The position numbers were made by a program, and so were the translations under genes. From the IMG/VR virus record IMGVR_UViG_3300045988_115788: a stretch of DNA of 64,000 nt. One strand, 5' to 3'. Numbering within the stretch: position 1 is the first letter of the stretch; each line of letters starts with the position of its first letter. This DNA is from a virus. This document shows positions 2,519 to 47,332 of this stretch, one piece after another. The notes below the pieces were generated by a model, which worked only from the letters and a program-made list of their open reading frames with translations, was not told the DNA's origin and ran no database searches.

Positions 2519-5500
2519 ATGGTAGATACTTATTTTTCATTACACAACCATAGTGATTATAGTAATCCAAGTTTAGGTTTTAGTGATTCTATTTGTAAAG
2601 TGAGTGGCTTGATTCAAAGAGCTTATGATATTGGTTTACAAGGTGTTACTATCACTGACCATGAATCACTTTCTTCTTTTGTTGAAGCATTAAATTATTA
2701 TGAATCAATGGAGCAAACTAGACCTTTTACTCTAGCTTTAGGCAATGAAATTTATCTTTTAACTGAAGAAGAATATGAAGAAAATCGTTATAACAATGGT
2801 ACGATTCCCTATTTTCATTTCATTCTTATCGCAAAAGACGATGAAGGTTATCGACAACTTTGTAAATTATCCACAAGAGCTTGGGAACGAGCTTATATGA
2901 AAGGTTGTTGGCGTAGACCAACTTTAATGGAAGATTTGGTTGAAATTATTCAGCCAAATCAAGGACATGTGTTTGGATTGAGCGCTTGTTTAGGTTCTCG
3001 TATCGACAAAATGCTTCTTGAAAGAAACAAAGCACTGTTTGAAAAAACTGGACACCTAACACAGATTCAACAGATTTTTGGCAAAGATAATTTCTATTTA
3101 GAAGTGCAACCTTCGGAAATAAAAGGAAACGAACAAAGCACTGTCAATACAATGCTTATGAAGGTAGCCAAACAACTGAAGCTCCCTATTGTTGTCAGTA
3201 CAGATAGTCACTATTTAAAAAAAGATGATGCTATTATTCACGAAGTTTTTTTAAAAAGTCAAGATGGCGAAAGAGAAGTAAGTGATTTTTATGCTACTGC
3301 TTACATGATGGAACCATCTGATTTACGAGAACATTTACGACATGAATTTAATGATGAAGAAATTGACTTTTTGATGTCAAATACAGTGGAATTAGGCCAA
3401 CGTATAGGTAAATATAGTTTTAAGCATAAACCAATCATTCCTGAAATTCCTGAAGAAAAAATTCCTGATTTTAAAACCCAACATACTTTTAAACAATATT
3501 ATTCTGAATATGAGTATTTTGGCTATTATGCTAAAGAAGATTTAGATATACATGAGCGTTATTTCTTTTATCAAATTGAGCAAGGACTAAAGCAAAAAGT
3601 TGTATTGAAACATAAGGATGTAAAAACCTATGTTGACCGGCTTAACACTGAATGGAGAGAACTAAAGTTAATTAGTGATGAATTAAATGGTTTCATGGTG
3701 GCATATTATTCAACTATGAGTAAAATAGTAGACCTTATGTGGGAAGCTAATAGTATAGTAGGCCCAGGAAGAGGCTCTTCTTCTGCTTTTTTAACTTGTT
3801 ATTTGTTGGACATTACAGCTATAGACCCTGTTCCGCTAGGTGACTATATGCCTTATTGGAGACATCTTAGCGCAGAAAGAAAGGCGGAGCTTCCTGATAT
3901 TGATACTGACTCAGAACCCAGTAAAAAATACGCTATCATAGAAGAAGTTAAAAAGTTTTTTGGAGAAGATAAAGTATTAAATGTTGCTACATTTTCTTCA
4001 ATTTCATCGAAAATAGCTATTGAAAAGGCTTGCCGTGGTTTAGGGATTGATGATACAACTGCGGCATATTTAAAATCTTTGATTCCTATTAATAGAGGCA
4101 AAATTGCTAAACTTAAAGATTGTTTATACGGTAGTGATAAAACACCTGTAGTTCATGCTCTTGTTGAAGAAATGAAAAAATACCCTAATCTTGAAAAGTG
4201 CGCTTTAGGGTTGTGCGACATTATTTCTCAAAAGGGACTTCATGCTGCGGGCCTTACGATTAGTAATAAGCCATATACAGAATATTGTAGTATGATGAGA
4301 GCGCCTAACGGCACTCCTTGTACTTGCTACAATCTTTGGGACGCAGAAGAAGTAAGTTTAGTTAAATTTGATTTGTTGACAGTTGATGCTCTACAAAAAG
4401 TTCATGGTGCATTAGACGCCATGGTAAATGATGGAACCATTGAATGGCAGGGCAATCTTCGAGACACATACAACAAATATATTCACCCAGACGTTATTGA
4501 TTATGACACTCCTGAGATGTGGGATTGTATCAATAAAATGTATTCTATATTTCAGTGGGCCACACCTTTTTCTGTTGCGGCACTAAAGCAAATTCAGCCA
4601 ACAACTTTATCAGAACTTTCAGCAGGAAATAGCCTAATTAGACTTATGCCAGACGGAGACGGTGAAACACCTCTTGATACCTATGTTCGATATAAAAATC
4701 ATCCTGAACAATGGAGTGTAGAAGCTTCTGCGTATGGGCTTAATGAAGAAGAAAAATCAATCATAGCCAAATACACCAAAGACGCTCATTATCTTGCAGA
4801 TTGTCAAGAAAAGATTATGCGACTTTCTATGGATGAACATATTGCTGGTTATACTCTAAAAGAAAGCAACCAACTTCGCAAAAGCGTAGCTAAAAAAGAC
4901 GAAGCTTTGCAAGAAAAAGCCAAGCAACAATTTTATGAATACGGAAAAAAGCAAGGCACTAGACAAGTGATGCTTGATTATGTTTGGAATGTACTGTTTA
5001 GTAAATCATTTGGATATTCTTTTTCAAGCATCCACAGTTGGGCTTATTCAATGATTGCTCTTCAGGAACTAAACATTTTTTATCATTACGGTGCTATATA
5101 TTGGAACATTGGTTGTTTACTTACAGAAACAAGTGACGAAGGGTCTGGTTCTGGTGCAGATTACGGTAAGATAGCAAAAGCAATTTATAAAATGCTTGCA
5201 TTTGGTGTAAATATTGTATCTCCTAATGTTAATGAATCTAAAGACAACTTTACTCCAAACGCAAAAGAGAACACTATTTATTACGGATTAGCTACAATTT
5301 CTGGAATTAACTCTCAGATAGCGAATCAAATCATTTCTATGCGGCCTTATAATTCATTTTTAGATTTTTATCGCAAAAATACATTTCCTGGTTCTCTCGT
5401 TACAAAGTCTAAAATTATTCAACTAATCAAAGCTGGATGTTTTGATTGTTTTAATACAAATAGAATTAAGGTGATGCAAGAATATTTCTGTTTATCTACG

Positions 5501-28103: not shown

Positions 28104-28131
28104 TACCCCTAGAGAATTATCTCTAGGGGTA
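28104..28131 (-). terminator. rho-independent terminator at the convergence point (U-tract on the - strand)
   Basis: Stem TACCCCTAGAG/CTCTAGGGGTA with a 6-nt loop. A-run on the + side gives TTTTTT downstream on the - strand. It lies 19 nt past the stop of the 28150-29205 gene. Confidence 0.7.
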
Positions 28132-28149
28132 AAATTATATTATGTTTTA

Positions 28150-29205
28150 TTAAACATAGAAGCAGGGGGCCACCGCATTGCAATAACGCGAGAAGTAGCC
28201 GTCCGCCGAACCATCAGCGTACACATAGCAAAAGGTGTTGGAGTCGCCGAAACACGGACTTCTGTTCCACCACCATACAGCACTGTTAGTGTTATTATAT
28301 TTATACCTAACCTTACTATTTCCATTTTTATAATAATCATACTGCTTCTGCTTATTCTGCTCTGCTGAATTAGCGTAATCTCTAGTACCATGAACTTCAA
28401 ATTCCGCTTCTAAGCAGATAGTTTCAGTTGTTGCAGTTACGTTAGAAGAATTATTAGTACCGCCACCTGTATTATCGGTATATTTTGTAACAGTTTTCAA
28501 TACGTTCTGAAGGCCAGTAGGTAGAGCATTTTTAATTGCAGACATGATTGTAGAACGCATATAACAACCTTCCCAACCACCGCTATTTGTATTACTGTCC
28601 CCATAAGACATGGAGAAATAACCAGAAGAAGTCATGGGGTATCGGCGATATTGGGAATCAACCAATCCAACAGTTTCGTTATTTACTTTACCGATGCAGA
28701 AATGAATACGATTATTCCCTTCGATTTCTGCGTTGTGATTGATGCCTAAGATATAAGCATCAATCTTTACATTACTAAAAGTAGTATTGCCTACTGTGCC
28801 ATTCAATACAATACTTTTAGTATCGCCAACACTGAATAAATTAGCCGCATCACCACTTGCGCTAACAGCACTAATCTCGGCCCAAGAATAATCGTTCAAA
28901 GTACGAAAAACTTTGTATTGCTTAAATTCTCTTACTTCAATAGTTGCCGTATTACTTCCCGCCGTAACAGTCCAAGTACCATATCCTACGTTGCCAATAG
29001 TCGCAATACCATCTTTACTTGTTGCAGATAAGGTCTTACCGCCGCTAACAGCTTGTGCAACAGTTCCCGTAGTACAGTATACTATAAATTGCGCTCCACT
29101 TGGTTCATAATCAATAATATTATCTAAAAGAATTTCAGGATACAGAATATCATACTGATTCTGTTCATTTAGATTTCTCATCGTAAATTTATATTTTCCC
29201 ATCAT
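28150..29205 (-). CDS. receptor-binding/tail-fibre protein with C-terminal DGR variable region (remote target)
   Basis: Paralog of 37627-38724, sharing long identical stretches such as IDAYILGINHNAEIEGNNRIHFCIGKVNNETVGL. The C-terminus ..WWWNRSPCFGDSNTFCYVYADGSADGYFSRYCNAVAPCFYV aligns with the TR. Confidence 0.8.
   Translation of the reverse strand: MMGKYKFTMRNLNEQNQYDILYPEILLDNIIDYEPSGAQFIVYCTTGTVAQAVSGGKTLSATSKDGIATIGNVGYGTWTVTAGSNTATIEVREFKQYKVFRTLNDYSWAEISAVSASGDAANLFSVGDTKSIVLNGTVGNTTFSNVKIDAYILGINHNAEIEGNNRIHFCIGKVNNETVGLVDSQYRRYPMTSSGYFSMSYGDSNTNSGGWEGCYMRSTIMSAIKNALPTGLQNVLKTVTKYTDNTGGGTNNSSNVTATTETICLEAEFEVHGTRDYANSAEQNKQKQYDYYKNGNSKVRYKYNNTNSAVWWWNRSPCFGDSNTFCYVYADGSADGYFSRYCNAVAPCFYV
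28165..28258 (-). repeat. DGR variable repeat VR2
   Basis: Aligns with TR 36972-37065 (offset -8807). By hand count there are 14 mismatches at TR adenines (T on the + strand) and 3 at non-adenine positions. Confidence 0.75.
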
Positions 29206-29477
29206 TTTTCCCCTTCAAGATAAGCTTTGAATTTATCAATAATAGCCTTATCAACATATTGCTTATTAGTCAAATGATTACTGTCAGTAGGAGCGCCACC
29301 AGAAATATCGTCACAAGTAAGAGTGATAACAGGGTCAGGTTTACCATTAACTACGACAGGAACATCTACAACTCCTTCTACGGCATTTACAACGGGCCTA
29401 CCTAGCACATCCTTAGTTACATGGAATTGTTCTGCATTAAACAGATAACCGCCATCTGGAGCCTTAAATTCTGCCAT
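29202..29477 (-). CDS. small fibre-associated protein, paralog of 32428-32628
   Basis: MAEFKAPDGGYLFNAEQFHVTKDVLGRPVVNAV compares with MAEVKAPGGNFFLNSEQFYITKNRYGQPVLNSI. Confidence 0.5.
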   Translation of the reverse strand: MAEFKAPDGGYLFNAEQFHVTKDVLGRPVVNAVEGVVDVPVVVNGKPDPVITLTCDDISGGAPTDSNHLTNKQYVDKAIIDKFKAYLEGEK

Positions 29478-29490
29478 GTATCATCCCTCC

Positions 29491-29934
29491 TTAAACTGTG
29501 CCAGTGACTTGATACCAGAAGTCGCCAGCTTTTTGATTGGTGGGCTGAGTTTCAGAAACTTTGATATCAATAGAACTTAGAGCAACAGCAGTAGGAACGC
29601 CACTTTCATTAAATCCTACATATTGACCGCTGGTACCAGTTAGTGCGACAGCTTTACCGTTAGTATCACTAACAATCACACTATTTTTAGTAACAGTATT
29701 ACCTCCAGTAGTCTGCATATAATCAGCTTGAATATCTGCAATATCACTTGCTTGGGTATTAACTTCGTTAGTTAATGTAGTTAAATCGCTCTTGTTAGCA
29801 AGTTCAATTTCACCTTCGGTAATAGCTTTGTCGCCAACAAACACCTGCTTAGTGTCTTTGGCTAGGTACATCTGACCATCTTCAAGATTAGGCTTTTTCG
29901 CAAAAGTGCCTCGAAGTATTTGAATTTTTTTCAT
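29491..29934 (-). CDS. tail-fibre protein with Mtd_N-like N-terminus
   Basis: N-terminus MKKIQILRGTFAKKPNLEDGQMYLAKDTKQVFVGD resembles the major-tropism-determinant/hyaluronidase-type N-terminal fibre domain. C-terminus has GDFWYQV. Confidence 0.5.
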   Translation of the reverse strand: MKKIQILRGTFAKKPNLEDGQMYLAKDTKQVFVGDKAITEGEIELANKSDLTTLTNEVNTQASDIADIQADYMQTTGGNTVTKNSVIVSDTNGKAVALTGTSGQYVGFNESGVPTAVALSSIDIKVSETQPTNQKAGDFWYQVTGTV

Positions 29935-29949
29935 ATTTACACATCCTCC

Positions 29950-30627
29950 TTAAAGAAATAGTACATTAGTTGCAATAGTATCGTCTGACATATCTAAATC
30001 GCCGCCATCAATATCTCCAATGGTAAGCTGTTTATCTTTATCAAAGATAATACTTTTTTTATCTGTTTTTATAGATAATACATTGTTTGTAAAATCCAAT
30101 CCATCCCCTGTTGCAAGCGTAGTTTCACTTGAAACTGGTATATCGCTAATTTCATACTCTTTCTTTTTGCTATCCCATAGCTTCCAGTATCCTGAACTAT
30201 CTGGAATAGGTGGATGTTGATATAATTCATCCAAATTACTTTCAATTTGATAAAATTCAGAAGGGAGAGGCCCTTTCTCTTGATAAGCAGAACAATAACC
30301 TAATACAGGTTTTTTAATCCATGCTTCAAATTTATCGCTTAAAAAAACTTTATCATCATTGATTCGTCTTAGTTGAAACAAGCATTTGCCAACAGGGAGT
30401 TGACCGGCAGTGAATATATAATAATATTCGCCTAATTCATCATTGTAATTTAAACTTATAGTGTTATGATAAATACACCCGTCTTGCTTTGATTCAACGT
30501 CCAATTTATAGTTACCAGGAACATCAACAACGCAAGAAAAAGTATCTACCAAATTATCAGTCTCAAAACCAATTACTCTATCATTAAAAAGGTAAGTGAT
30601 TTTGCGACCTTTAAGCTCAACTCGCAT
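29950..30627 (-). CDS. tail-fibre-associated structural protein
   Basis: 225-aa ORF within the fibre cluster. Contains an IGDIDGGDLD motif near the C-terminus. Confidence 0.4.
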   Translation of the reverse strand: MRVELKGRKITYLFNDRVIGFETDNLVDTFSCVVDVPGNYKLDVESKQDGCIYHNTISLNYNDELGEYYYIFTAGQLPVGKCLFQLRRINDDKVFLSDKFEAWIKKPVLGYCSAYQEKGPLPSEFYQIESNLDELYQHPPIPDSSGYWKLWDSKKKEYEISDIPVSSETTLATGDGLDFTNNVLSIKTDKKSIIFDKDKQLTIGDIDGGDLDMSDDTIATNVLFL

Positions 30628-30654
30628 CTTCGTTCCGCCTCCTTTTATGAAGAA

Positions 30655-30690
30655 GTTAAAAAATAAGGGGAGAATGTTTATCCTCCCCTT
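30655..30690 (-). terminator. rho-independent terminator (- strand)
   Basis: Stem AAGGGGAG/CTCCCCTT with a 10-nt loop, followed on the - strand by ATTTTTT. Confidence 0.65.
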
Positions 30691-30728
30691 AAAGTTATTT
30701 TATATTAAATTGTATATTAAGTTTTCAA

Positions 30729-32348
30729 TTAAGCAATTTCACCAGCATCAATATCGCCAACAGAAATAACACCTGCGGCAACAGTGATAGAAGTACCATC
30801 GGGCTTAACAGCACCAGCAACAGCAGTAGAAGCAACATCCATAGTAATTCCGTTAGTAGAATTTAGACTTAGACCGTTGCCAGCAACAACCTTGGTAGAA
30901 ACAACACGCTCATCAGAAATAGCAATGCCGTCACCAGCAGTATAAGCCTTTTCGGTAGCAACGAATAGACCATCAGTACCTAGAGATAGAGCATTACCAG
31001 AAGCGGCAGAGATAGCAACCTTTACGGTAGGAGCAGTAGCTTCACCGGCGACAGTAATAGACTTATCTGCGGCAGTTACGGAAGCAACCTTACCATCTGC
31101 GGCAGTCTGAACCTTTGCAATTTCTTCCTGGGCATACTTCTTAACACCGTAAACAGTAGCCTTATCGGCAGCATCAGCGGTAGTACCTAGAACAGCGGCA
31201 GCGGCACCAGCTTCATCAAAAGCGCTCTTGGGCTGATAAGCGGCAGTGTCTAGGCCCTTAACAGCAACGTCAGTACCTTCAACAGCGATAGTGCCATTAG
31301 TAGCACCAGTTGCAATGTCGCTATTCTGTAGGGCAGAATCAGCTAGACCTAGAGAAGCCTTAACACCAGCGGCAAGCTTTTCTAGGGTGATAGAACCATC
31401 GGTAATAGTGGCAGTAACCTTGTGGTCTTCAGAAACAGCAATAACGACCATATCATCTGCCTGAGAGCCAGAAGTAACATACTCAATTAGGTCAGCAACA
31501 TTGATATAAATCTTATCAGAAGTCTTGTTAGCAATGGTTAGCTCAATGTAAGTACCAGGGGTCTGACCTTCAGGATTGACAACAACCTTACCAGACTCAA
31601 CAACCATGTCTTTAGGAATGTTGATGGAGGCGCCAACATTAGCGCCATCCTTCTGTAGGTTATAGACTGCGGCAAAATCACCAGAATCTTCAGCCTTAAC
31701 AATGGTATAAGTAGAGGCGGCAGGAATGGTTACGGATAGACCGGCGGCACCAAGAGTTAGAGCATTGCCTACGGCAGGGTCTACCTTAACAGCAACAGTA
31801 GGTTCAGTGACAGAGCCACCAACAGTTACAGAAGTGTCGCCAGCCTTAACAGCATTTACAACTTCCTTCTTTAGATTTGCGGCGGCTTCAGTGGCGGCAC
31901 CAGCAACATCAAAGTATTCAACATCCTTTGCGGAAGCAGTGCCAAGGCCAGTAATCTTGGAAGCAGGAATGTCGAACTTTAGGTCTTCTAGGGCTAGGTC
32001 AGCACCTTCAGTGACGCGGCCCTTTGCATCAACAGTAACCTTACCATAAGTACCAGCAGTAACGCCAGAAGCGGCTAGTTCTAGTACAAGATTAACTGCG
32101 GCAGTGCCATCAAAATCTACGGCAGGAGCAGTAGCATCGCCAGAAATGGAGAAAGCACGAGCAACAGCTAGCTTTGCGGCTTGGTCAGCAGTGCCACCAT
32201 CGGGGTTAATGATTACATTACCAGCAGTAGTACCATTAGTACCAATGTATAGCTTGCCAGTGTCACGGGCAAAAGCAAATTCACCAGCCTTTAGAGCGGT
32301 TGCGAGTACAGCGGCGGATAGACCTCTTTTAATTTGAATAGTCTGCAT
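30729..32348 (-). CDS. Ala/Gly/Thr/Val-rich tail fibre protein
   Basis: ATG 32348 gives MQTIQIKRGLSAAV..GEFAFARDTGKLYIGTNG (Mtd_N-like). Contains AGTYGKVTVDAKGRVTEG, a phage tail-fibre repeat-like motif. The gene is markedly GC-richer than its flanks. Confidence 0.7.
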   Translation of the reverse strand: MQTIQIKRGLSAAVLATALKAGEFAFARDTGKLYIGTNGTTAGNVIINPDGGTADQAAKLAVARAFSISGDATAPAVDFDGTAAVNLVLELAASGVTAGTYGKVTVDAKGRVTEGADLALEDLKFDIPASKITGLGTASAKDVEYFDVAGAATEAAANLKKEVVNAVKAGDTSVTVGGSVTEPTVAVKVDPAVGNALTLGAAGLSVTIPAASTYTIVKAEDSGDFAAVYNLQKDGANVGASINIPKDMVVESGKVVVNPEGQTPGTYIELTIANKTSDKIYINVADLIEYVTSGSQADDMVVIAVSEDHKVTATITDGSITLEKLAAGVKASLGLADSALQNSDIATGATNGTIAVEGTDVAVKGLDTAAYQPKSAFDEAGAAAAVLGTTADAADKATVYGVKKYAQEEIAKVQTAADGKVASVTAADKSITVAGEATAPTVKVAISAASGNALSLGTDGLFVATEKAYTAGDGIAISDERVVSTKVVAGNGLSLNSTNGITMDVASTAVAGAVKPDGTSITVAAGVISVGDIDAGEIA

Positions 32349-32427
32349 AATATCAAACTCTTTTATAAAAATATTTTTATAATTAGCTTTAAGTGAAATC
32401 TTAATCACAAAAAGCTATTTTTTAATT

Positions 32428-32628
32428 TTAAACAATCTCACCAGCATCTAGTTCAATGTTTTGGTGAGCTTTTTTATCATCATTGTGTTTATTTATAGCC
32501 ACGACAATACTGCCGCCACCACCAGAATCAATAGAATTTAATACTGGTTGACCATATCTGTTTTTAGTAATATAAAATTGCTCACTGTTCAAGAAAAAGT
32601 TACCGCCAGGAGCTTTTACTTCGGCCAT
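32428..32628 (-). CDS. small fibre-associated protein, paralog of 29202-29477
   Basis: ATG 32628 follows AAAGGTGG. Ends in ELDAGEIV. Confidence 0.5.
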   Translation of the reverse strand: MAEVKAPGGNFFLNSEQFYITKNRYGQPVLNSIDSGGGGSIVVAINKHNDDKKAHQNIELDAGEIV

Positions 32629-32718
32629 TAAAACGACCACCTTTCTTAACTCTGTACAAAGTTTTTATAGATTCTATATAAACTTAGCAAGCGGTACCTC
32701 TCGCCAAGATAATTTTCT

Positions 32719-33030
32719 TTATTCTTCTGGCGCATTTACTTTTTTAGACATAGAGCATAGGTCATCAATTAGTTTAGACACTGCCTCCATGTCAATATCA
32801 TAATTAACTTCATTAGCAGAAGCCTTAATCATAGCAAGAACATACTGTTTCTTTTCTGCACCAGATTCGTATTGCTTTTCGGCCTCTTCCATGTATTTCA
32901 TCACAAGATTCAGCACAATAGACCAATTCTTTTCTTTTACTGCTTTCTGAATATATCTTACAAGAGCAATAATAAGAGGAATAGTCGTTGCAATGCCGCT
33001 AAGAATAGAAATTACAATGTTAATATCCAT
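32719..33030 (-). CDS. holin-like membrane protein
   Basis: N-terminal TM segment (INIVISILSGIATTIPLIIALV) and a charged C-terminus. Lies adjacent to the amidase. Confidence 0.45.
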   Translation of the reverse strand: MDINIVISILSGIATTIPLIIALVRYIQKAVKEKNWSIVLNLVMKYMEEAEKQYESGAEKKQYVLAMIKASANEVNYDIDMEAVSKLIDDLCSMSKKVNAPEE

Positions 33031-33044
33031 ATATATTACCTCTT

Positions 33045-33374
33045 TTAAATAGTAGGTTCATTATAATCATTTATTTTAAACTCATTTGCTTTAGCTAAAG
33101 CATAAGAAATGCCATCGCCGTCTGCGCTTGTATTTTCATCTCTGTTTTTATCTACAATACGACTTAAAACAATACTACAAGCAGTTCCAATAGGTGTAAA
33201 TACAATAGTCCAACAATAAAGGCTACCCGTATAATCCATACCAATACACTTAATAGCTAAATAAAAGCCGCCAGCTAAACCAAATGCTAAAAATAAAAGA
33301 ATATAAACAGCTAGTCGATTTGTAAACCCTAACCGCTTAAAATGATTTCTTATTCTATGTTTTCTTTTAGCCAA
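33045..33374 (-). CDS. holin-like membrane protein (2 TM)
   Basis: Two hydrophobic segments. Lies immediately downstream of the amidase. Confidence 0.5.
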   Translation of the reverse strand: MAKRKHRIRNHFKRLGFTNRLAVYILLFLAFGLAGGFYLAIKCIGMDYTGSLYCWTIVFTPIGTACSIVLSRIVDKNRDENTSADGDGISYALAKANEFKINDYNEPTI

Positions 33375-33375
33375 C

Positions 33376-34170
33376 TTAAATCAGCCCTTTTCTCCCCATA
33401 ACCGCAATAAATTCATCACGCTTTAAGAATCCTTCAGGCGCTTCACCATTAACTAGCTTCTGTTGAGTTGCTTTATTCCAATGCCCTTCTTGCTTAGACC
33501 AATCAGGTTCAGGCTTAGAAGCAACGTATTGAGAAGCCTTTTGTAACAGTGTATATGCCTGTTCAGGAGTCATTTCTTTAATGAAAGTATTTATATCCAT
33601 GTCTTCTTCAACCTCCTCTACGGGCTTTGTAGTGGCCTGTAAACGCTTATTTACTTCTGCCGCAATCTCACCATATTTACTGAACAAATAATTACCAGGA
33701 CAAGACTTGTCTGGCCTAGTGTATCTATGTGGCACCATATTGCATGCCGCCCAATTACCTGTAAAAGCTGGACAATATTGCTTTCCTTCTTTCCAAATAA
33801 GCTTCTTGATGCCATTACGTTTACAAATATCCACACATAAATTGATTAGAGCAACGTATGCTTTTTTAGTACATTCATAAGGTTCTTTATAACTTTGAAT
33901 ACTAGATACTTCAATAGTAACTACTTCATGGTCTACTTTATGGCTTGTACACCAAGCACGATTTTCTTCAAGAACATATTGACCAATTCTACCATCTGGC
34001 CCAATACCATAATGAGAAGAAGCTTTTCTTTGTTGAAAAACTTGTCCACAACCTTCAACAGAACCAGGCCCCGCCATAGTATGAATACTGATGCCCTTAA
34101 TCCGGCCTTGTCTAGGCTTTGTACAATGAGGTGATAGTTTAGTATAATTTACTAATTTACTTTGAGACAT
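33376..34170 (-). CDS. N-acetylmuramoyl-L-alanine amidase (endolysin, Amidase_2/PGRP type)
   Basis: GISIHTMAG...SSHYGIGPDGRIGQYVLEENRAWC...VVTIEVS motif pattern. ATG 34170 preferred (MSQSKLVNY). Confidence 0.7.
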   Translation of the reverse strand: MSQSKLVNYTKLSPHCTKPRQGRIKGISIHTMAGPGSVEGCGQVFQQRKASSHYGIGPDGRIGQYVLEENRAWCTSHKVDHEVVTIEVSSIQSYKEPYECTKKAYVALINLCVDICKRNGIKKLIWKEGKQYCPAFTGNWAACNMVPHRYTRPDKSCPGNYLFSKYGEIAAEVNKRLQATTKPVEEVEEDMDINTFIKEMTPEQAYTLLQKASQYVASKPEPDWSKQEGHWNKATQQKLVNGEAPEGFLKRDEFIAVMGRKGLI

Positions 34171-34840
34171 TAAAAGCACCATCCAACTTATTAACAATAT
34201 TATTCATTTGTTCTTGTGCGGCAGTAAGCATCTCATTCATTTTAGCCTTAAAAGTATCATTTAGTTCTTCGCCATATTGTACACCATACACCTTATTAGG
34301 TTCAGTATAAGTTTTCATTTGAGCTTTTAACATGTTGAAATAAGTGGTATGATAAGTAACGTGTGTCTTATAAGCCATATATAGTTCAGTAATAGATTTT
34401 GCATCCATTACAGCACATTCTTCACCATCTGCATGATAAGGGAAAGAATTTGCACCAAGAACAATGGAATTAAACATAGAATCAATATTAGTTTGGTCGG
34501 CGGCAGTTAGAGAATAATGCTTGCCATTATAATCAATACCATCAATAATAGTTTTATTGCAAATGGCAGAAAGTTCAACACATTTCTTATCCATTGCTTC
34601 ACCCAAATAGTCAAATTTAGGCAGTTGTTTAAGAGTTTCTTCATCTACTTCTCGAATTTCTACACTTTCAGGACAGCCAATTCCGTTAGTACCTAAAATA
34701 TTATAAGCAACAGACATAAACGCAACGCCCTTTGGATTGCTGGATTTATCTTGCCCATAACATCCATTGTCTTGTAGCTTAATATAATTTAGTTCATCAG
34801 TAGTACCTATTACCAAATTATTTCGGATAATTGCATACAT
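34157..34840 (-). CDS. DUF4376-like fibre partner protein (possible fibre chaperone), paralog of 38743-39363 and 41585-42181
   Basis: Shared block ...GKHYSLTAADQTNIDSMFNSIVLGANSFPYHADGEECAVMDAKSI..Y..THVTYHTTYFN. Confidence 0.55.
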   Translation of the reverse strand: MYAIIRNNLVIGTTDELNYIKLQDNGCYGQDKSSNPKGVAFMSVAYNILGTNGIGCPESVEIREVDEETLKQLPKFDYLGEAMDKKCVELSAICNKTIIDGIDYNGKHYSLTAADQTNIDSMFNSIVLGANSFPYHADGEECAVMDAKSITELYMAYKTHVTYHTTYFNMLKAQMKTYTEPNKVYGVQYGEELNDTFKAKMNEMLTAAQEQMNNIVNKLDGAFNVSK

Positions 34841-34862
34841 TAAATAAACCAGTCCTTTCCGA

Positions 34863-35300
34863 TTAAATTTTTTGACAAATTGTCAAAATACGTTCTAGTT
34901 CTTCGATAGGTGCTTCATAAAAATCTTTACTCCACACCCAAAAGTCACTATGTTCTGCGCGGCGATATTTAGTTAAAGATTCATCTTCCCATAGTAAATT
35001 CCAACGCTCTTGATGCTTCTTTTGATTAAAGGCCCTGTCTTTGTTAAGACGTTTTAGAATCTTGTCAATTAGTTCGCCACGAAGAAGTCCTTTGTTGTCG
35101 TTATTGATTGCAAAATAATCATAAGCATTTTGAGATGTATTGTAACATAGCGGCCCATTTTCGTTTGAAATAAGACCATTAGTTTCTGTACAAAGCGTTG
35201 CATAAGGCAGATTAACCATGCCTTGAAGTGCTTTTTGATTAAATCTCTTTTTTACAATATAATTATTTTTCATTTTATTCCTTTCTAATTTGCGGCTCAT
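34863..35300 (-). CDS. hypothetical protein immediately downstream of the DGR RT
   Basis: 145-aa ORF overlapping the RT stop by 26 nt (alternative ATG at 35273). No recognisable motif. Confidence 0.45.
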   Translation of the reverse strand: MSRKLERNKMKNNYIVKKRFNQKALQGMVNLPYATLCTETNGLISNENGPLCYNTSQNAYDYFAINNDNKGLLRGELIDKILKRLNKDRAFNQKKHQERWNLLWEDESLTKYRRAEHSDFWVWSKDFYEAPIEELERILTICQKI

Positions 35301-36681
35301 TTAAAATATCGTGTATTTTATCAAAGATGTCCATAGGCTTAGATTTCATTTTAGCAAGATAATCTTTTCGTTCGCAAAGAGGTATGAATCCATTATACAT
35401 CATCGACTCAATTTTCTTTGATTGAAGGTCAAGAAAAATCTTTAATTGTTTTTTAGAACAATAATAGACCCAACCACAATAATCATTCCAAACATATTTG
35501 ATATAACATTTAAAAGGTTTATTTTGTTGACTCAAATATTGAATGAAAGTAGATACAAACTTTTTATCCATATTATATATGGTTCGATAGCAACCAAAAT
35601 GTTTTGCATAGCCTCTCCAACATTGGTATGTTACACAAATATCATCTATTGACATTTTTCCCTCGTCAGCCCATTTCTTGAAAATTTTTAATTTTCTTCT
35701 AATTCTTTTAAGACTATCTTTATTCAATTTTGTTACGATTTTTCCACTATCTGTCAAAGTAAATCTAATTTTCAAAAAAGTAAAACTATGGTGCTTAAAA
35801 GGAGTTATGCGATTTTTCTTTTCGTTTATTTTTATGCCAACAGAATTGGCTAATATTTCAACAAAATTTTTTATCTCTTTTAGTTCTTCAAAAGAATTGC
35901 TGATTACATAACCATCATCCATATATCTGCCATAACCTTTTATGCGAAAAACATCTTTAATGTAATGGTCTATAAGATTAGCATAATCTAAAGCAATATT
36001 TTGTGATATTGGACTGCCTAATCCAACTCCAAATGGCCCCTTAGAATCATGTAAAGTAAGAAATTCATCAATAAATTTATCTCCAAGAACAATCAACTGT
36101 CTATCTTTTATATATTTTCTTAATTCCATTTTTGCACCTTCATGCGGAATTGAAGCAAAATATTTAGAAAAATCATATTGATAAATGCCTCCTTTATAAC
36201 CATACTTTCTATAATGATGCCGCAGTTGCTTTTTTAGCATCTGTATGGCAAAGTGGATACCTTTATTTTTCAACGAAGCTGAATTAGTTGAAACAAAACT
36301 TTTAGAATAAGCTTCTGTCATTATTTCGTTGCAAAAACACTTTTGAACCGCTCTATCTTCAATATTCAAAGCATGTATGTCTCTTATTTTTCCATGCTCA
36401 TTTGTTTTAAAGAAGCAAAAGCCATGAAATTTATAGGCATTAGCATCCATCTTTTTCTTTAATTCAAAAGACCTTATTAACAATTCATTTTCAAAATTTT
36501 GTACTGAAGTTTTCCATCTAACTCCTTTACAACATTCTTTTGATGCTCTATATAAATTTTCAAAAGAATAAACTTCATCATAACTTTTATTTACTATATT
36601 TCTTTTCTTTAAATCTCTTTTTGCTTTACGCCTTAAATATCTTTTCTCATGGCGCTCTTTACTTGTCAGAATTTTCACCAC
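35275..36681 (-). CDS. DGR reverse transcriptase
   Basis: 468 aa. RT motifs YQYDFSKYFASIPH (A), GVGLGSPISQNIA (the [I/L]GxxxSQ hallmark of DGR RTs) and GRYMDDGYVIS (YxDD). Lies adjacent to the TR and avd. Confidence 0.9.
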   Translation of the reverse strand: MVKILTSKERHEKRYLRRKAKRDLKKRNIVNKSYDEVYSFENLYRASKECCKGVRWKTSVQNFENELLIRSFELKKKMDANAYKFHGFCFFKTNEHGKIRDIHALNIEDRAVQKCFCNEIMTEAYSKSFVSTNSASLKNKGIHFAIQMLKKQLRHHYRKYGYKGGIYQYDFSKYFASIPHEGAKMELRKYIKDRQLIVLGDKFIDEFLTLHDSKGPFGVGLGSPISQNIALDYANLIDHYIKDVFRIKGYGRYMDDGYVISNSFEELKEIKNFVEILANSVGIKINEKKNRITPFKHHSFTFLKIRFTLTDSGKIVTKLNKDSLKRIRRKLKIFKKWADEGKMSIDDICVTYQCWRGYAKHFGCYRTIYNMDKKFVSTFIQYLSQQNKPFKCYIKYVWNDYCGWVYYCSKKQLKIFLDLQSKKIESMMYNGFIPLCERKDYLAKMKSKPMDIFDKIHDILNEPQIRKE

Positions 36682-36971
36682 TTTTTATTTTAATTTTTTC
36701 GTATAATTTTTAGTTTTGTTAAAAACTAAGATAATTTGCTAATTACATAACTGGTACCTATGAAATTTGTCTAAAATTATCAAACAACAAACCATGCAAG
36801 AAGCGTCCAGGACACAGTATCGAAAAAATAATTTAGGATGCCAAAGCAGAGCCAAGGATATTTCCCCCTTCTATGAAAAGATTATTTTCACCTAGCAAAA
36901 ACTAGGTTACTTCTCAATCCCAGTAGCCATCTATAACCAAAAAATGGCGGCTACTATTGGCATAGAATCAG

Positions 36972-37065
36972 GGGGGCCACCGCATTGCAATTCCGCGAGT
37001 TGTTGTTGTTCGCCGAACCATCAGTGTTCACATTGCAGAAGTTGTTGGAGTTGTCGGAATACGGA
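36972..37065 (-). repeat. DGR template repeat (TR)
   Basis: About 94 nt between avd and the RT. The - strand sense is AAC-rich (..AACAACAACAAC..). By hand count it has 26 adenines. It aligns with VR1 and VR2. Confidence 0.85.
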
Positions 37066-37092: not shown

Positions 37093-37551
37093 TTATTCTT
37101 TTAATTCATTTTGATACTTTTTATATCTTTTCTTTGTGTCTTGTATTACACCCGAAATCAATTTCCTTTCGGTTGTTATTAAATCTACCCAATCTTGAAA
37201 AATATTATTTGCCTGCTCTTTCGTCCCAAGAAAATTATTTCCTTCTCTTATATATTCATATACGGTTGAAACCATAAAAGTTAAAGCATAAATTTTAGAC
37301 CTTGCAATATATAAATGAGATAATCTTTTTTCATACTCTTCTTGAGACATGGTTTTACTTATATAATAAGAATTTGCTTGAAAAACACTAAGACTAATAT
37401 CTCGTGTCAAATTATATAAATCTTGATACATATTAAATTTATAAGATTTTGGAAACTTTTTAGATAATTTTATAGTAAAAATAAAAAGTTTCTTTGCTGT
37501 AGTTAAAAACTCCGCTTTAGAAGGATTTCTTTGTGCTTTATATACAGACAT
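37093..37551 (-). CDS. avd: DGR accessory variability determinant (Avd-like four-helix-bundle protein)
   Basis: 152-aa basic helical protein located between the target gene and the TR, which is the canonical avd position. Confidence 0.7.
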   Translation of the reverse strand: MSVYKAQRNPSKAEFLTTAKKLFIFTIKLSKKFPKSYKFNMYQDLYNLTRDISLSVFQANSYYISKTMSQEEYEKRLSHLYIARSKIYALTFMVSTVYEYIREGNNFLGTKEQANNIFQDWVDLITTERKLISGVIQDTKKRYKKYQNELKE

Positions 37552-37583: not shown

Positions 37584-37611
37584 GCCCTGCCACGCTTGCG
37601 CGAAGCAGGGC
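37584..37611 (-). promoter_or_regulatory. GC-rich hairpin 15 nt downstream of the VR1 gene stop (candidate DGR retrohoming hairpin)
   Basis: GCCCTGC (37584-37590) pairs with GCAGGGC (37605-37611). No U-tract follows on the - strand. Confidence 0.4.
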
Positions 37612-37626
37612 TTTGGATTTTACAGA

Positions 37627-38724
37627 TTAAACATAGAAGCAGGGGGCCACCGCATCGCAATACCGCGAGTTGGTGCCGGACGCCGAACCACCAGTGTGCA
37701 CAAAGCAGAAGTAGCCGGAGTTGCCGGAATACGGACTCCTGTTCCACCAATATACAGCACTGTTAGTGTTATTATATTCATATCTAACTTTACTATTCCC
37801 GTTTTTATAATAGTCATACTGTTGTTGTTTGTTTTGTTCATAACTATTAGCGTATTTTCTAGTACCATGAACCTCAAATTCTGCTTCAAGACAAATTGTT
37901 TCAGTTGTTGCAGTTACATAAGAAGAGTTGCTACCACCGCCGCCACCTGTATTATCAGTATACTTCGTAACTGTCTTTAACACATTTTGAAGGTCAGTAG
38001 GTAAAACATCTTTAATTGCAGGAATAATTGTAGAACGCATATAACAACCTTCCCAACCTCCAACATTTGTATCGCTATCACCATAAGACATAGAGAAATA
38101 ACCAGAAGAAGTTATTGGATATTGTTCATATTTGGAATCAATTAGTCCAACAGTTTCGTTATTAACCTTGCCAATACAAAAGTGAATACGATTATTCCCT
38201 TCGATTTCTGCATTGTGGTTAATACCTAAGATATAAGCATCAATAGATAAATTAGAAAACGTAGTATTACCTACTTGCCCGTTAATAATAATCGTTTTTG
38301 TATCCCCTACATTCCAATAATTAGAAGCTTCTCCACTTGCGCTAATTTCACTAATAATGTTCCACGAATTATCATTAAGTGTAGCACTAACAACAGTAAA
38401 AGATATTTCATAAATCTTTAAAGCGTCTATTGTTATGTTTTGCGTTTTAGTAGTCCCTGAGATATTAGTAGAAACTAAATATTCTCCATATTGAAGATTA
38501 TCAAAAGTAGCAATGCCAGTTGTGTTAGTTACAGCTGTTGCGGTTTTAGCCCCACTTAAATTTACAACCTGTCCTGCTGCTCCACCGACAATAGCTACAT
38601 CAATTCTTGCTCCTCCTAAATTTTCCAAGTCTTTTATATTTTCTTTCACCGTGTTGGGATACAGTATATCATAACTATTAGAAGCTTCATTATACTCTCG
38701 CATAGTGATTAGATATTCTGCCAT
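37627..38724 (-). CDS. receptor-binding/tail-fibre protein, primary DGR target
   Basis: 365 aa. The C-terminus ..VYWWNRSPYSGNSGYFCFVHTGGSASGTNSRYCDAVAPCFYV corresponds to TR-encoded PYSDNSNNFCNVNTDGSANNNNSRNCNAVAP. Shares the N-terminal MAEY..T..N....YD.LYP motif with the other RBPs. Confidence 0.85.
   Translation of the reverse strand: MAEYLITMREYNEASNSYDILYPNTVKENIKDLENLGGARIDVAIVGGAAGQVVNLSGAKTATAVTNTTGIATFDNLQYGEYLVSTNISGTTKTQNITIDALKIYEISFTVVSATLNDNSWNIISEISASGEASNYWNVGDTKTIIINGQVGNTTFSNLSIDAYILGINHNAEIEGNNRIHFCIGKVNNETVGLIDSKYEQYPITSSGYFSMSYGDSDTNVGGWEGCYMRSTIIPAIKDVLPTDLQNVLKTVTKYTDNTGGGGGSNSSYVTATTETICLEAEFEVHGTRKYANSYEQNKQQQYDYYKNGNSKVRYEYNNTNSAVYWWNRSPYSGNSGYFCFVHTGGSASGTNSRYCDAVAPCFYV
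37642..37735 (-). repeat. DGR variable repeat VR1
   Basis: Aligns with the TR at offset +670. All 15 hand-counted mismatches are at TR adenine positions. Confidence 0.85.
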
Positions 38725-39363: not shown

Positions 39364-40752
39364 AACAAAACACCCCTTATTGAACCTCACATAGTTAAAG
39401 TCACATGATTCTTGAGAACTCTTTTCCATTGAAAAGATATTTATCAAGCTATCCCGACCGTTCCTGCCGTTCTTTTTTGTATTTGCTAGACTACTTCAAG
39501 TATCCGTATTCCTTCGTTTAAAATATTTATTGCCGCATTTATGTCTCTATCAAGATGAGTATTACAACAAGGACAAACCCATTCTCTAACTTTGAGATTT
39601 TTTGTTTCTTTATTGACATATCCACACACATTGCAAATTTGAGAGCTTGCAAAAAACTTACCTACTTTGACAACTTGTTTACCATACCAATTAGCTTTAT
39701 ATTCCAATTCTCTAACAAACTCAGACCATGATGCATCTGCTATAGACATCGCAAGTTTGTGATTTTTAATCATATTTGACACTTGTAAATCCTCTAAACA
39801 GATTATATCATTATTTCTAATAATTTTAGTAGACAACTTTTGTAAGAAGTCTTTTCTCTGATTCGCAATATGCTCTTGAAGTCTTGCCACTTTAATTCTT
39901 GCTTTATTGCAATTTGAGCCGCCTTTTGATTTTCGAGACAGTTCTTTTTGTAACTTAACAAGTTTATCTAAAGACTTTTTGAAATATTTAGGATTTGCAA
40001 TCATTTCTCCATTAGACATTATACAAAATTCTTTAATTCCTAAATCAATACCAACCGATTTTTCAGTCTTTTCTAATGGTTCCATATTAACATCAGTACA
40101 ACAAAGTGACACATAATATTTTCCACTGGGTACTTGTGACACAGTTGCGTTAAGTATCCTACCTTGTGGTACCAACTTATTTTTCGTTTTTACCATTCCA
40201 AGTTTAGGTAATTTAATGTGCTTATTACAGTATTGAATATTTCCATTAGTGCATTTTGACTTATAAGAATATCTATGAATTTTCTTTGACTTGAATTTTG
40301 GATACCCACTGCGTTCCTTAAAAAAATTCTGATATGCAGAATCCAAATCTTTGAGTGAAGACTGAAGAGCAGTGGAGTCAACCTCTTTAAGCCATTGTAA
40401 TTCTGTTTTAAGATTTTTCATATCGTTTGCACACTGCGCATACGAAAAAGATTTTTTTGATTCTTCATATATTTTAATTCTCTTTGCAAGGTATACATTG
40501 TATATAAATCTACAACATCCAAATGTCTTTGCTATTAACTCTTTTTGTTTCTTATTCGGATAAATCCTGTACTTATAGGCTTTTTCCACTATCTTCACCT
40601 CACTTTATTTGGCACACCAAACCACATGATATTGAATTGCATATAACATATCCTCGACCATGAGTTACTTCCATGATATGTCATCTCATGTGCGTATTTT
40701 CTGTTTTTGCGACGATTTATCTCACCACTGAAGTGACAAGTGTTCTCGCCTT
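39364..40752 (-). mobile_element. IS200/IS605-family TnpB-only element (approximate boundaries)
   Basis: Consists of tnpB, an about 155-nt 5' flank with the imperfect palindrome ACATATC (40646-40652)/GATATGT (40675-40681), and an about 120-nt 3' non-coding flank. No tnpA is present. It interrupts an RBP/partner gene pair. Confidence 0.6.
39486..40598 (-). CDS. tnpB: TnpB (RNA-guided RuvC-like nuclease, IS605 OrfB family)
   Basis: 370 aa. N-terminal [12 protein letters not shown] signature, VGIDLGIK (RuvC-I), CLEDLQV (RuvC-II), CNVCG..CPCC zinc finger and [10 protein letters not shown] (RuvC-III). Confidence 0.85.
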
Positions 40753-46408: not shown

Positions 46409-47332
46409 TTACTCCTTACTTGGAATTAAATTAGCATAGTACAAATCATCTCTACTGTCAACAGACCCCGCTTCGACCCAATCAGCAGAAGCGTTAATAA
46501 CGCCCATTCCATAATTAGAATCATAACTCAAAGAAGGGGTACCAGTAAATACAACCAAAAAAGAATTTCCATTCCAGTCCTTTATTACTTTTGGTTGCTT
46601 GTCCGTAACGAACTCTAAGAAACTATTTGCTTTGTCTACAATAGCTTTTCTATCAGGAACTCTTTCCTCTTCATCATAATTGTCTTGAAGAACCATTCCA
46701 GCAAGACTGCCTGTTTTGTAGTTTGTTGTTGCATTGCTAATCAAAGTAGGATATTTCTTATTCAAAGGTTCATAAATATCAACTTTTTGATTTTGTTGAG
46801 TATCTCCGTAAGATACTTGAGCATACATTTTAAAAGCCGTGTCAACGGTACAAATAAAAACACCTTTATATTGGCTTAGAACGCGGCGCGTAAAATATTG
46901 CCCTTCAATCGTATCTGTGTCCATTGGAACAATAGCATACTCATAAGTTACATTGCTTTTTACTGCTGAATAATCATCAAAAGTTATAACAGTATTTTTA
47001 TTTCTTAAATCAAATTCTTTTATAGTAAACCAATTTCCGGTTCCAACTTCTCTTCTTTTGATTCTTGCTTTATAAGCACGAGAAAAAGCATCAGGAAAAT
47101 ACCCTGCTTGTAAAGTCTTTTTATCAAAATGAGTTAAAAGCAAAGTGTCTTTATCCCAAATATTGCTAATGCTTTCAGTTTCTTCAAATTCTGTATTTTT
47201 TGAAAGTCTAATTTGTTCTATAACAAACCCACCAGCAGAAAGAGAATTTGTTTCAAAATTATAGACAGGCATAGGGTCTGCCGCATTTCCGTCCGCAAAA
47301 AAGTTGTATCCCAAAAAGCCTATCATCTTCAA
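46409..47332 (-). CDS. tail-tip/baseplate structural protein
   Basis: 307-aa ORF. Assigned by position. Confidence 0.4.
   Translation of the reverse strand: MKMIGFLGYNFFADGNAADPMPVYNFETNSLSAGGFVIEQIRLSKNTEFEETESISNIWDKDTLLLTHFDKKTLQAGYFPDAFSRAYKARIKRREVGTGNWFTIKEFDLRNKNTVITFDDYSAVKSNVTYEYAIVPMDTDTIEGQYFTRRVLSQYKGVFICTVDTAFKMYAQVSYGDTQQNQKVDIYEPLNKKYPTLISNATTNYKTGSLAGMVLQDNYDEEERVPDRKAIVDKANSFLEFVTDKQPKVIKDWNGNSFLVVFTGTPSLSYDSNYGMGVINASADWVEAGSVDSRDDLYYANLIPSKE

Follow-up and report, generated by a model that had tools for sequence, protein, structure and literature searches.

The window analyzed here is a 64,000-nt stretch of viral DNA (IMG/VR record IMGVR_UViG_3300045988_115788). Its cassette is one complete, active diversity-generating retroelement (DGR) with a reverse transcriptase (RT) and a template repeat (TR), and two genes of the window end in a variable repeat (VR) of this TR. 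Target 1 (T1) lies next to the cassette and ends in VR1. Target 2 (T2, 28150–29205) is a remote paralog and ends in VR2 (28165–28258). Among near-clonal genomes VR1 switched while VR2 stayed fixed, and in five RT-intact genomes VR2 did not track the resident TR. We consider it probable that VR2 is a stale relic of a DGR target and that detectable rewriting by the resident DGR is confined to the cassette-adjacent VR1.

VR2 differs from the TR mainly at adenines

TR and VR coordinates were obtained by ungapped alignment anchored on GGGGCCACCGCA. Among the 93 scored positions of the TR, 26 are adenines, most of them within AAC or AAT codons. All 15 mismatches between VR1 and the TR were at T on the + strand, which is A on the coding strand. 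VR2 had 17 mismatches to the TR, 14 at adenines and 3 at non-adenine (non-A) positions (TR C36993, G37038, and G37057). Changes were thus found at 14 of 26 A sites and at 3 of 67 other sites (Fisher p = 2.8e-7). The position of VR2, both mismatch counts, and the three non-A sites had been given in a first-pass annotation of this DNA, and every number was reproduced. Read as coding-strand codons, the non-A changes are TCC to TTC (Ser to Phe), TTC to TTT (synonymous), and CGG to CGT (synonymous). When the target criterion of a published DGR survey was applied (A-to-N differences only, with minor exceptions; PMC5758913), VR2 fell within the lenient threshold and outside the strict one.

Across the family, variation in the VRs of T2 proteins was restricted to adenine-containing TR codons, the same as in the VRs of T1. 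Because of this restriction and the adenine bias, VR2 is clearly a genuine DGR-made variable repeat. The C-terminal 94 nt of T2 would have been written by adenine-mutagenic retrohoming from this TR family.

VR1 switches in near-clonal genomes while VR2 is constant

The exact RT of the window is present on 24 contigs, and 10 places were retrieved and compared. The TR was identical across the 10 near-clonal contigs. Three VR1 alleles were found in the series, namely A (window, L026, and L030), B (L024 and L028), and B′ (L025, L027, and L031–L033). The differences between the alleles were all at TR adenines except at one site, and the genomes were otherwise at least 99.99% identical. Allele B′ equals B plus a single non-A change, GCG to GTG (Ala to Val), at window position 37682. 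It shows that an active VR too can gain a non-A difference between homing events.

VR2 was identical to that of the window in every near-clonal contig that reaches it (L017, L024, and L026). Contig L024 (21.4 kb) covers window positions 46681–25275 and differs from the window at 16 positions. Fourteen of these are in VR1 (37662–37724) and none is in VR2; the remaining two are at 32357 and 40920. The proteins gave the same picture. T1 occurred as three variants with an identical body, on 7, 4, and 4 contigs, whereas T2 occurred as a single protein, found exactly on 13 public contigs. No other VR2 variant on that T2 body was present in a collection of about 15 billion proteins, and the sole other member of the 90% cluster of the T2 protein has a different body. 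An exact look-up of the T2 protein returned one place; its contig stops 2 kb upstream of T2 and so gave no TR.

These results showed that VR1 diversification is ongoing, and that VR2, its three odd sites included, stays fixed while VR1 switches. The first-pass annotation had proposed that one TR may serve both genes, and had itself named an invariant VR2 beside a varying VR1 as the outcome that speaks against it. This is what the near-clonal genomes contained.

VR2 does not track the resident TR

Each VR was scored against the TR of its own genome, using RT-intact genomes. In VRs adjacent to avd, non-A mismatches were absent from window allele A, allele B, L037–L042, and L044, and there was one each in allele B′ and L012. 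Remote VR2s had 3 (window), 9 (L018), 10 (L037), 4 (L042), and 9 (L044). The totals were 2 of 737 sites for adjacent VRs and 35 of 335 sites for remote ones (p = 2e-16; Mann–Whitney p = 4e-4). The VR2 of L018 also had further changes within the initiation of mutagenic homing (IMH) element. A strong adenine bias was present in all the remote VR2s.

Two of these genomes were especially informative. L037 and L044 have private non-adenine variants in their TRs. The variants were present in the VR1 of the same genome and missing from its VR2, which also speaks against one TR serving both genes. L002, in which the RT is deleted, was used as a calibrator. At 3720–4055 it has kept avd and the TR and has lost the RT save its last 34 codons (residues 435–468). 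Its VR1 has 7 non-A mismatches, a value in the range of remote VR2s. The VR2 of L002 is unscorable position by position at its 5′ end owing to a 3-nt deletion, and the computed count of 9 non-A mismatches arose from misalignment. Visual inspection gives one non-A site (TTT), the 3-nt deletion, and an extra C.

VR2 therefore did not track the resident TR in any of the five RT-intact genomes. Since VR2 fails to follow its own TR and has retained the adenine bias, it is best described as DGR-made but old, and no VR2 homing event would have been fixed since the last change of the TR. The suggestion of the first-pass annotation that VR2 is refreshed rarely or is decaying fits these comparative data, from both the near-clonal contigs and the scoring against resident TRs. 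We infer that VR2 is static because the remote site undergoes little or no retrohoming, and not because selection purges its variants. Its disuse may be due to the different downstream hairpin and spacing, or to a preference for the adjacent site; selection on T2 is also possible.

Origin of the three non-adenine differences

The change TTC to TTT (window G37038) was shared by the VR2 of the window, L002, L013, and L037, by the VR1 of L002, and by the VR of L034–L036. The VR alleles that carry TTT differ from one another at many adenine sites. In L039, L040, and L041 the TR itself has TTT at this site, and their VR1 copies it. A TR(TTT) allele thus exists in sibling phages. Being common to differently diversified alleles and identical with a TR allele, TTT must have come from a template and not from an error. 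It appears that TTT in VR2 preserves an older (ancestral) or foreign (recombination donor) state of the TR rather than random decay.

The other two changes, TCC to TTC and CGG to CGT, were seen only in the VR2 of this strain. L018 and L044 are also changed in the third base of the latter codon, in keeping with ordinary drift, and both changes are probably ordinary point substitutions. VR2 would then have kept TTT from an older or foreign TR, and TCC to TTC and CGG to CGT would have accumulated afterwards.

A different origin of the three differences is that the DGR itself made them, by non-canonical mutagenesis of the RT or by errors in cDNA integration, with VR2 as a current target. In the DGR survey, 23% of the DGRs had non-A-to-N substitutions, and targets of a single DGR were often unlike in this respect (PMC5758913). 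The single GCG-to-GTG change in VR1 allele B′ might also be read in this way. However, in 9 of 11 cases the adjacent VRs made by the same RT were free of non-A mismatches, TTT was templated as described above, and the single-site difference between B′ and B fits a later point mutation. We regard this origin as very improbable.

Search for a second TR or RT

The first-pass annotation had also suggested that VR2 is served by a TR outside the window, and a second TR was therefore searched for in the window and in IMG/VR. A low-stringency blastn search of the TR against the window returned the three known copies only (TR, VR1, and VR2), and no second RT was found in the 64 kb. An IMH/IMH* pattern, where IMH* is the corresponding element of the TR, matched only VR1, the TR, and VR2 on the 119.7-kb IMG/VR contig of a close relative. 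A TR-core pattern that tolerates both TTC and TTT matched only known TRs in IMG/VR, and a hypothetical TR carrying CGT had no match there. No second TR was found by any of these searches.

A second TR that lies beyond the window, matches VR2 at its three non-A sites, and serves it would still have room, as the window covers about half of a genome of ~120 kb (public contigs of 122,633 and 120,507 nt carry this T2 protein or this RT), and contigs about as long carry distant RTs (about 50% identity). The pattern scans nevertheless gave known copies only, no additional TR-like copy is present in the window, and two of the three sites occur in the VR2 of this strain alone. Such a TR is, in our judgment, extremely improbable.

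The shared 3′ boundary and a live but slow VR2

VR2 was claimed in the first-pass annotation to share the 3′ boundary of VR1, and the two were indeed identical over 29 nt. The sequence ATTAAACATAGAAGCAGGGGGCCACCGCA is present at 28149–28177 (VR2) and 37626–37654 (VR1) and runs through the stop codon. In both VRs GCGGTGGCCCCC is followed by TGCTTCTATG, and in the TR GCGGTGGCCCCC is followed by an extra C and TGATTCTATG. The boundary encodes the conserved C-terminus AVAPCFYV*. GCGGTGGCCCCCTGCTTCTATGTTTAA was kept in relatives without avd, TR, and RT (L004, L020, and L021). L004 and L020 have no cassette, and in L021 (2230–2520) a deletion scar joins the start of avd to the C-terminus of the RT. 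Because the sequence codes for a conserved C-terminus and is kept without the cassette, its identity is weak evidence of function. An identical IMH as proof of a live VR2 was accordingly rejected, as cassette-less relatives retain it as coding sequence.

The cassette has been lost repeatedly in close relatives, and VR-like gene ends remain in L002, L004, L020, and L021. On the coding strand, the run of C at the TR/IMH* junction (window 36972–36977) also varies in length. The window and L006 have 6, L018 has 4, and most relatives have 5; the equivalent sites of L002, L018, and L037–L044 were compared. In the VR2 of L002 the run is 6 rather than 5, which would frameshift the last codons of T2.

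Several observations weigh against VR2 being a relic. The VR1 alleles are no more than one or two homing events apart, so that at equal rates VR2 would have escaped by chance with a probability of 25–50%, and the near-clonal series alone is statistically weak. The data are consensus assemblies, in which low-frequency VR2 variants would go unseen. Among 52 T2 proteins 44 VR alleles were unique, indicating that T2 was diversified many times in the past. The VR2 of the window, with its three non-A sites, is the freshest of the five examined, and the relatives share ancestry and are not independent samples of one rate. Finally, VR2 has the same IMH as VR1 and a hairpin downstream, and nothing in the sequence visibly disables it.

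These points bear on the alternative that VR2 is a live target that is slow or selectively constrained, with homing being rare or variants being purged as T2 binds a conserved receptor. The identical IMH and the hairpin agree with it, as do the adenine bias and the high diversity of VR2 between lineages. The near-clonal events are also too few to exclude a rate that is several-fold lower, and one adjacent plus one non-adjacent target in the same prophage is a common arrangement of phage DGRs (Wu et al. 2018, NAR, PMC5758913). However, fixed homing would erase non-A differences, yet all five RT-intact genomes hold 3–10 of them, and the VR2s of L037 and L044 lack TR variants that VR1 has already copied. 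We consider a live VR2 unlikely. The homing rate would have to be below the rate at which the TR changes, and therefore a target this slow is practically equal to a relic.

T1 and T2 proteins

The first-pass annotation described T2 as a paralog of the primary target that ends in VR2, which agreed with our comparison. The two proteins have 67% amino acid identity overall. Per block of 50 columns, identity was 36–50% over the N-terminal 150 residues and 74–90% beyond. Both match Pfam DUF6273 (E = 4e-12 for T2), and T2 also matches phrog_37900. T2 consists of an N-terminal β-sandwich and a C-terminal DUF6273 domain. Searches by sequence and by profile gave no PDB match for T2. Its AlphaFold2 model, built with 45 close homologues, was confident only at the N-terminal β-sandwich (residues ~40–100), and the DUF6273 domain had a predicted local distance difference test score below 50. 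T2 is predicted to be a DUF6273 (C-type-lectin-like) fibre or adhesin gene.

Outside the VRs, the C-terminal halves of T1 and T2 (window 38050–38450 and 28600–29000) were mosaic among relatives, with 71–96% nucleotide identity per 100-nt block. The genes flanking T1 and T2 in the same relatives had 97–99% protein identity. Since these halves are diverged and mosaic in otherwise near-identical relatives, the pattern points to gene conversion or exchange as a frequent event, both from paralog to paralog and from phage to phage.

Exchange between phages and the cassette-adjacent context

Some contigs join the repeats in a non-canonical way. They are L015:13200-13300 (NFYZ01004836.1), L003:10001-11100, the source of protein P0130, L014, L035, and L036. 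The junctions were of four types: a TR 5′ part joined to a VR2 3′ part and its flank, a T1 body joined to a VR2 flank, a T1 N-terminal half joined to a T2 C-terminal half, and a T2-type gene joined to a VR1 flank and avd. Real recombination between repeats and short-read repeat collapse explain these junctions equally well.

T1-type and T2-type proteins whose bodies are at most 3 aa apart were compared in pairs. At least 10 VR residues differed in 7 of 9 T1-type pairs and in 1 of 7 T2-type pairs (p = 0.04). The exceptional T2-type pair was P0132 and P0143, which are encoded in L034/L035 and L036, respectively. Here, 3 body positions and 18 VR positions differ, 17 of the latter at TR adenines, and every one of these genes has TTT. 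A VR1-type flank follows the T2-type gene in both L035 and L036, and in L036 avd comes next. Turnover of a T2-type VR was thus seen only where the gene adjoins the cassette, which indicates that turnover goes with the cassette-adjacent context and not with the gene type, on short contigs that are possible assembly joins.

It follows as a tentative and rather doubtful proposal that retrohoming in this lineage may be restricted to the VR directly upstream of avd, despite the identical IMH at the remote site.

The same contigs raise the alternative that T2 acquired its 3′ part through recombination, from a sibling phage with a cassette-adjacent T2-type gene and a TR(TTT), and that this part has never since been a target of the resident DGR. 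The mosaic C-terminal halves between well-conserved flanks would fit such an import. So would the existence of the TR(TTT) allele, the T2-type genes followed by a VR1-type flank and avd in L014, L035, and L036, and the TTT-bearing pair that differs almost only in its VR. On the other hand, the T2-type::avd junctions are on short contigs (1.3–2.8 kb) and may be assembly joins via the shared repeat, the TR of those contigs was not recovered, and vertical descent from an ancestral TR(TTT) explains the same data. We consider import improbable. It is a variant of the relic explanation and does not contradict it.

Cassette anatomy and neighboring genes

The features of the window are collected in Table 1. 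On the - strand the order is T1 with VR1, hairpin, avd-like open reading frame (ORF), TR, RT-2 RNA, RT, DUF4376 fibre-like gene, endolysin, small ORFs, Mtd_N fibre, three small ORFs, and T2. The first-pass annotation had put VR2 8.8 kb from the TR, past fibre and lysis genes, and this gene layout agrees with it. The genes between the RT and T2 are the DUF4376 fibre-like gene, an endolysin/amidase (33376–34197), small ORFs, a fibre with an Mtd_N domain (30729–32408), and three small structural ORFs.

Table 1. Positions of the DGR components, the two targets, and associated elements in the window
Feature	Position	Strand	Basis or remark
Hairpin, 12-bp stem and 4-nt loop, 3′ of T2 between convergent genes	28104..28131	.	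z = -4.7
T2 (target 2), 351-aa paralog of the primary DGR target	28150..29205	-	ORF
IMH-like 3′ element of VR2, GCGGTGGCCCCCTGCTTCTATG on the coding strand	28155..28176	-	Same as that of VR1; overlaps the AVAPCFYV codons
VR2, 94-nt variable repeat	28165..28258	-	14 adenine-site and 3 non-adenine mismatches to the TR
Genes between RT and T2	29202..35300	-	ORFs; domain and phrog searches
DGR RT, 468 aa	35275..36681	-	RVT_1; phrog_1423, E = 1e-72
Structured RNA, Rfam RT-2 RNA (RF03077), full length	36674..36924	-	93.4 bits against a gathering score of 40, E = 7e-21
IMH* of the TR	36961..36983	-	One extra C and one A/C difference from the VR IMH
TR, 94 nt	36972..37065	-	Ungapped comparison
avd-like accessory gene, 152 aa, between VR1 and TR	37093..37551	-	Position
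Hairpin, GC-rich, 3′ of VR1	37584..37611	.	Sequence unlike that of the hairpin after VR2
T1 (target 1), primary cassette-adjacent DUF6273 gene, 365 aa	37627..38724	-	ORF, Pfam, phrog
VR1, variable repeat	37642..37735	-	15 mismatches to the TR, adenines only; actively switching

The best PDB match of the RT was chain 8ub7_A (E = 3e-14), a 328-residue RT chain that we take to be the DGR RT of Bordetella phage BPP-1. The LGSPISQ of the RT was aligned opposite IGSLTSQ, with GxxxSQ conserved. The motif [LIV]GxxxSQ is a marker of DGR-clade RTs. The match to RT-2 RNA fills the gap between the TR and the start codon of the RT. This element is presumably the structured part of the DGR RNA, and it may have a role in priming cDNA synthesis. 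The avd-like ORF had a weak match to phrog_3206, 'Avd protein of DGR' (E = 2e-4), and had no Pfam, NCBIfam, or PDB match in sequence and profile searches. The hairpin at 28104–28131 is terminator-like on either strand.

A TnpB/IS605 OrfB-family gene is located at 39486–40598 (-), between two fibre-module genes just upstream of T1. It has HTH_OrfB_IS605, OrfB_IS605, and Cas12f1-like TNB domains. At this site the gene was present in L003 and L024 and absent in L002, L012, and L039. L022 has another TnpB copy between the Mtd_N fibre and the next gene. Because its presence at the site varies and a second location was found in L022, the TnpB gene appears to be mobile within the fibre region.

Distribution of relatives

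Neither the T2 region nor the cassette had a megablast match among 50,697 GenBank phage records. A scan of GTDB species genomes with the IMH pattern also gave no match, hence no prophage copy or clue to the host. Scans of IMG/VR and JGI metagenomes found few relatives, and the useful ones came from exact-protein look-ups. The protein collection contained T2 orthologues in about 39 clusters, besides many orthologues of T1; their contigs were 117–126 kb long and came from human and pig gut. The strain of the window is present in the MetaHIT runs ERR321299, ERR321301, ERR321302, ERR209292, ERR209293, and ERR209295. The RT falls in one tight 90%-identity cluster of 198 sequences, and its next relatives are about 53% identical. 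L042 and L043 are from pig gut metagenomes. Their TR is identical, and they belong to the same phage group as the human gut contigs.

Discussion

The DGR of the window resembles that of BPP-1 (mtd-avd-TR-brt) in the order target, avd (here an avd-like gene), TR, and RT. Both have a GC-rich IMH at the 3′ end of the VR, a differing IMH* at the TR, a hairpin after the VR, adenine-specific mismatches mostly in AAC and AAT codons, and an RT with a conserved GxxxSQ. They differ in the target domain, which here is DUF6273 and not Mtd; a separate fibre in the window has Mtd_N only. The RT is also longer, with 468 aa against the 328-residue chain, the avd-like protein is too diverged for detection in Pfam or PDB, and a second, remote VR is present here.

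The two-target phage DGRs of the survey (PMC5758913) have the same layout. One RT/TR cassette has an adjacent target, a second VR gene lies a few kb off in the same phage genome, the VRs are at the 3′ ends of the genes, and the targets differ in their non-A-to-N pattern. The difference is that in the window the remote VR ignores the resident TR and stays constant as the adjacent VR switches. Because it is invariant and does not follow the resident TR in the comparative genomes, its non-A differences are best read as staleness and not as an extra mutagenic capability.

DUF6273 has been described as a C-type-lectin-like domain of DGR targets in which the VR occupies the C-terminal end, and two-target DGRs with DUF6273 are known from gut phages, in the tentaclin paper (PMC10743442) and in Faecalibacterium prophages (PMC11792537). 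The DGR of the window shares with them the C-terminal VR in DUF6273, two targets per DGR, and the human gut. In those phages, however, both VRs are reported to be mutated across related genomes and the targets are of unlike architecture, whereas here the targets are close paralogs and current turnover was seen in the adjacent one only. The layout is thus that of an ordinary phage DGR with a non-adjacent second target. What is added here is the evidence of a relic remote VR and a fossil TR site.

DGR surveys routinely count TR-like repeats with mostly A-to-N differences as targets, and non-A differences are sometimes read as added mutagenic capacity. Near-clonal genomes and sibling lineages provide a direct natural test of target status, which the remote VR does not pass. 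Target disuse can be recognized simply, and roughly dated, from non-A mismatches, and relics may inflate the number of phage DGRs counted as multi-target. If retrohoming is restricted to the avd-adjacent VR, the choice of DGR targets would depend on a cis or context feature that is overlooked when targets are called by IMH. Such a feature could be a specific downstream hairpin and spacing, co-transcription, or local delivery of cDNA, and remote 'targets' with few non-A mismatches would be datable fossils of earlier TR states. For this gut phage, apparently only one of its two putative lectin-type fibre proteins is currently diversified, which bears on the prediction and engineering of host range.

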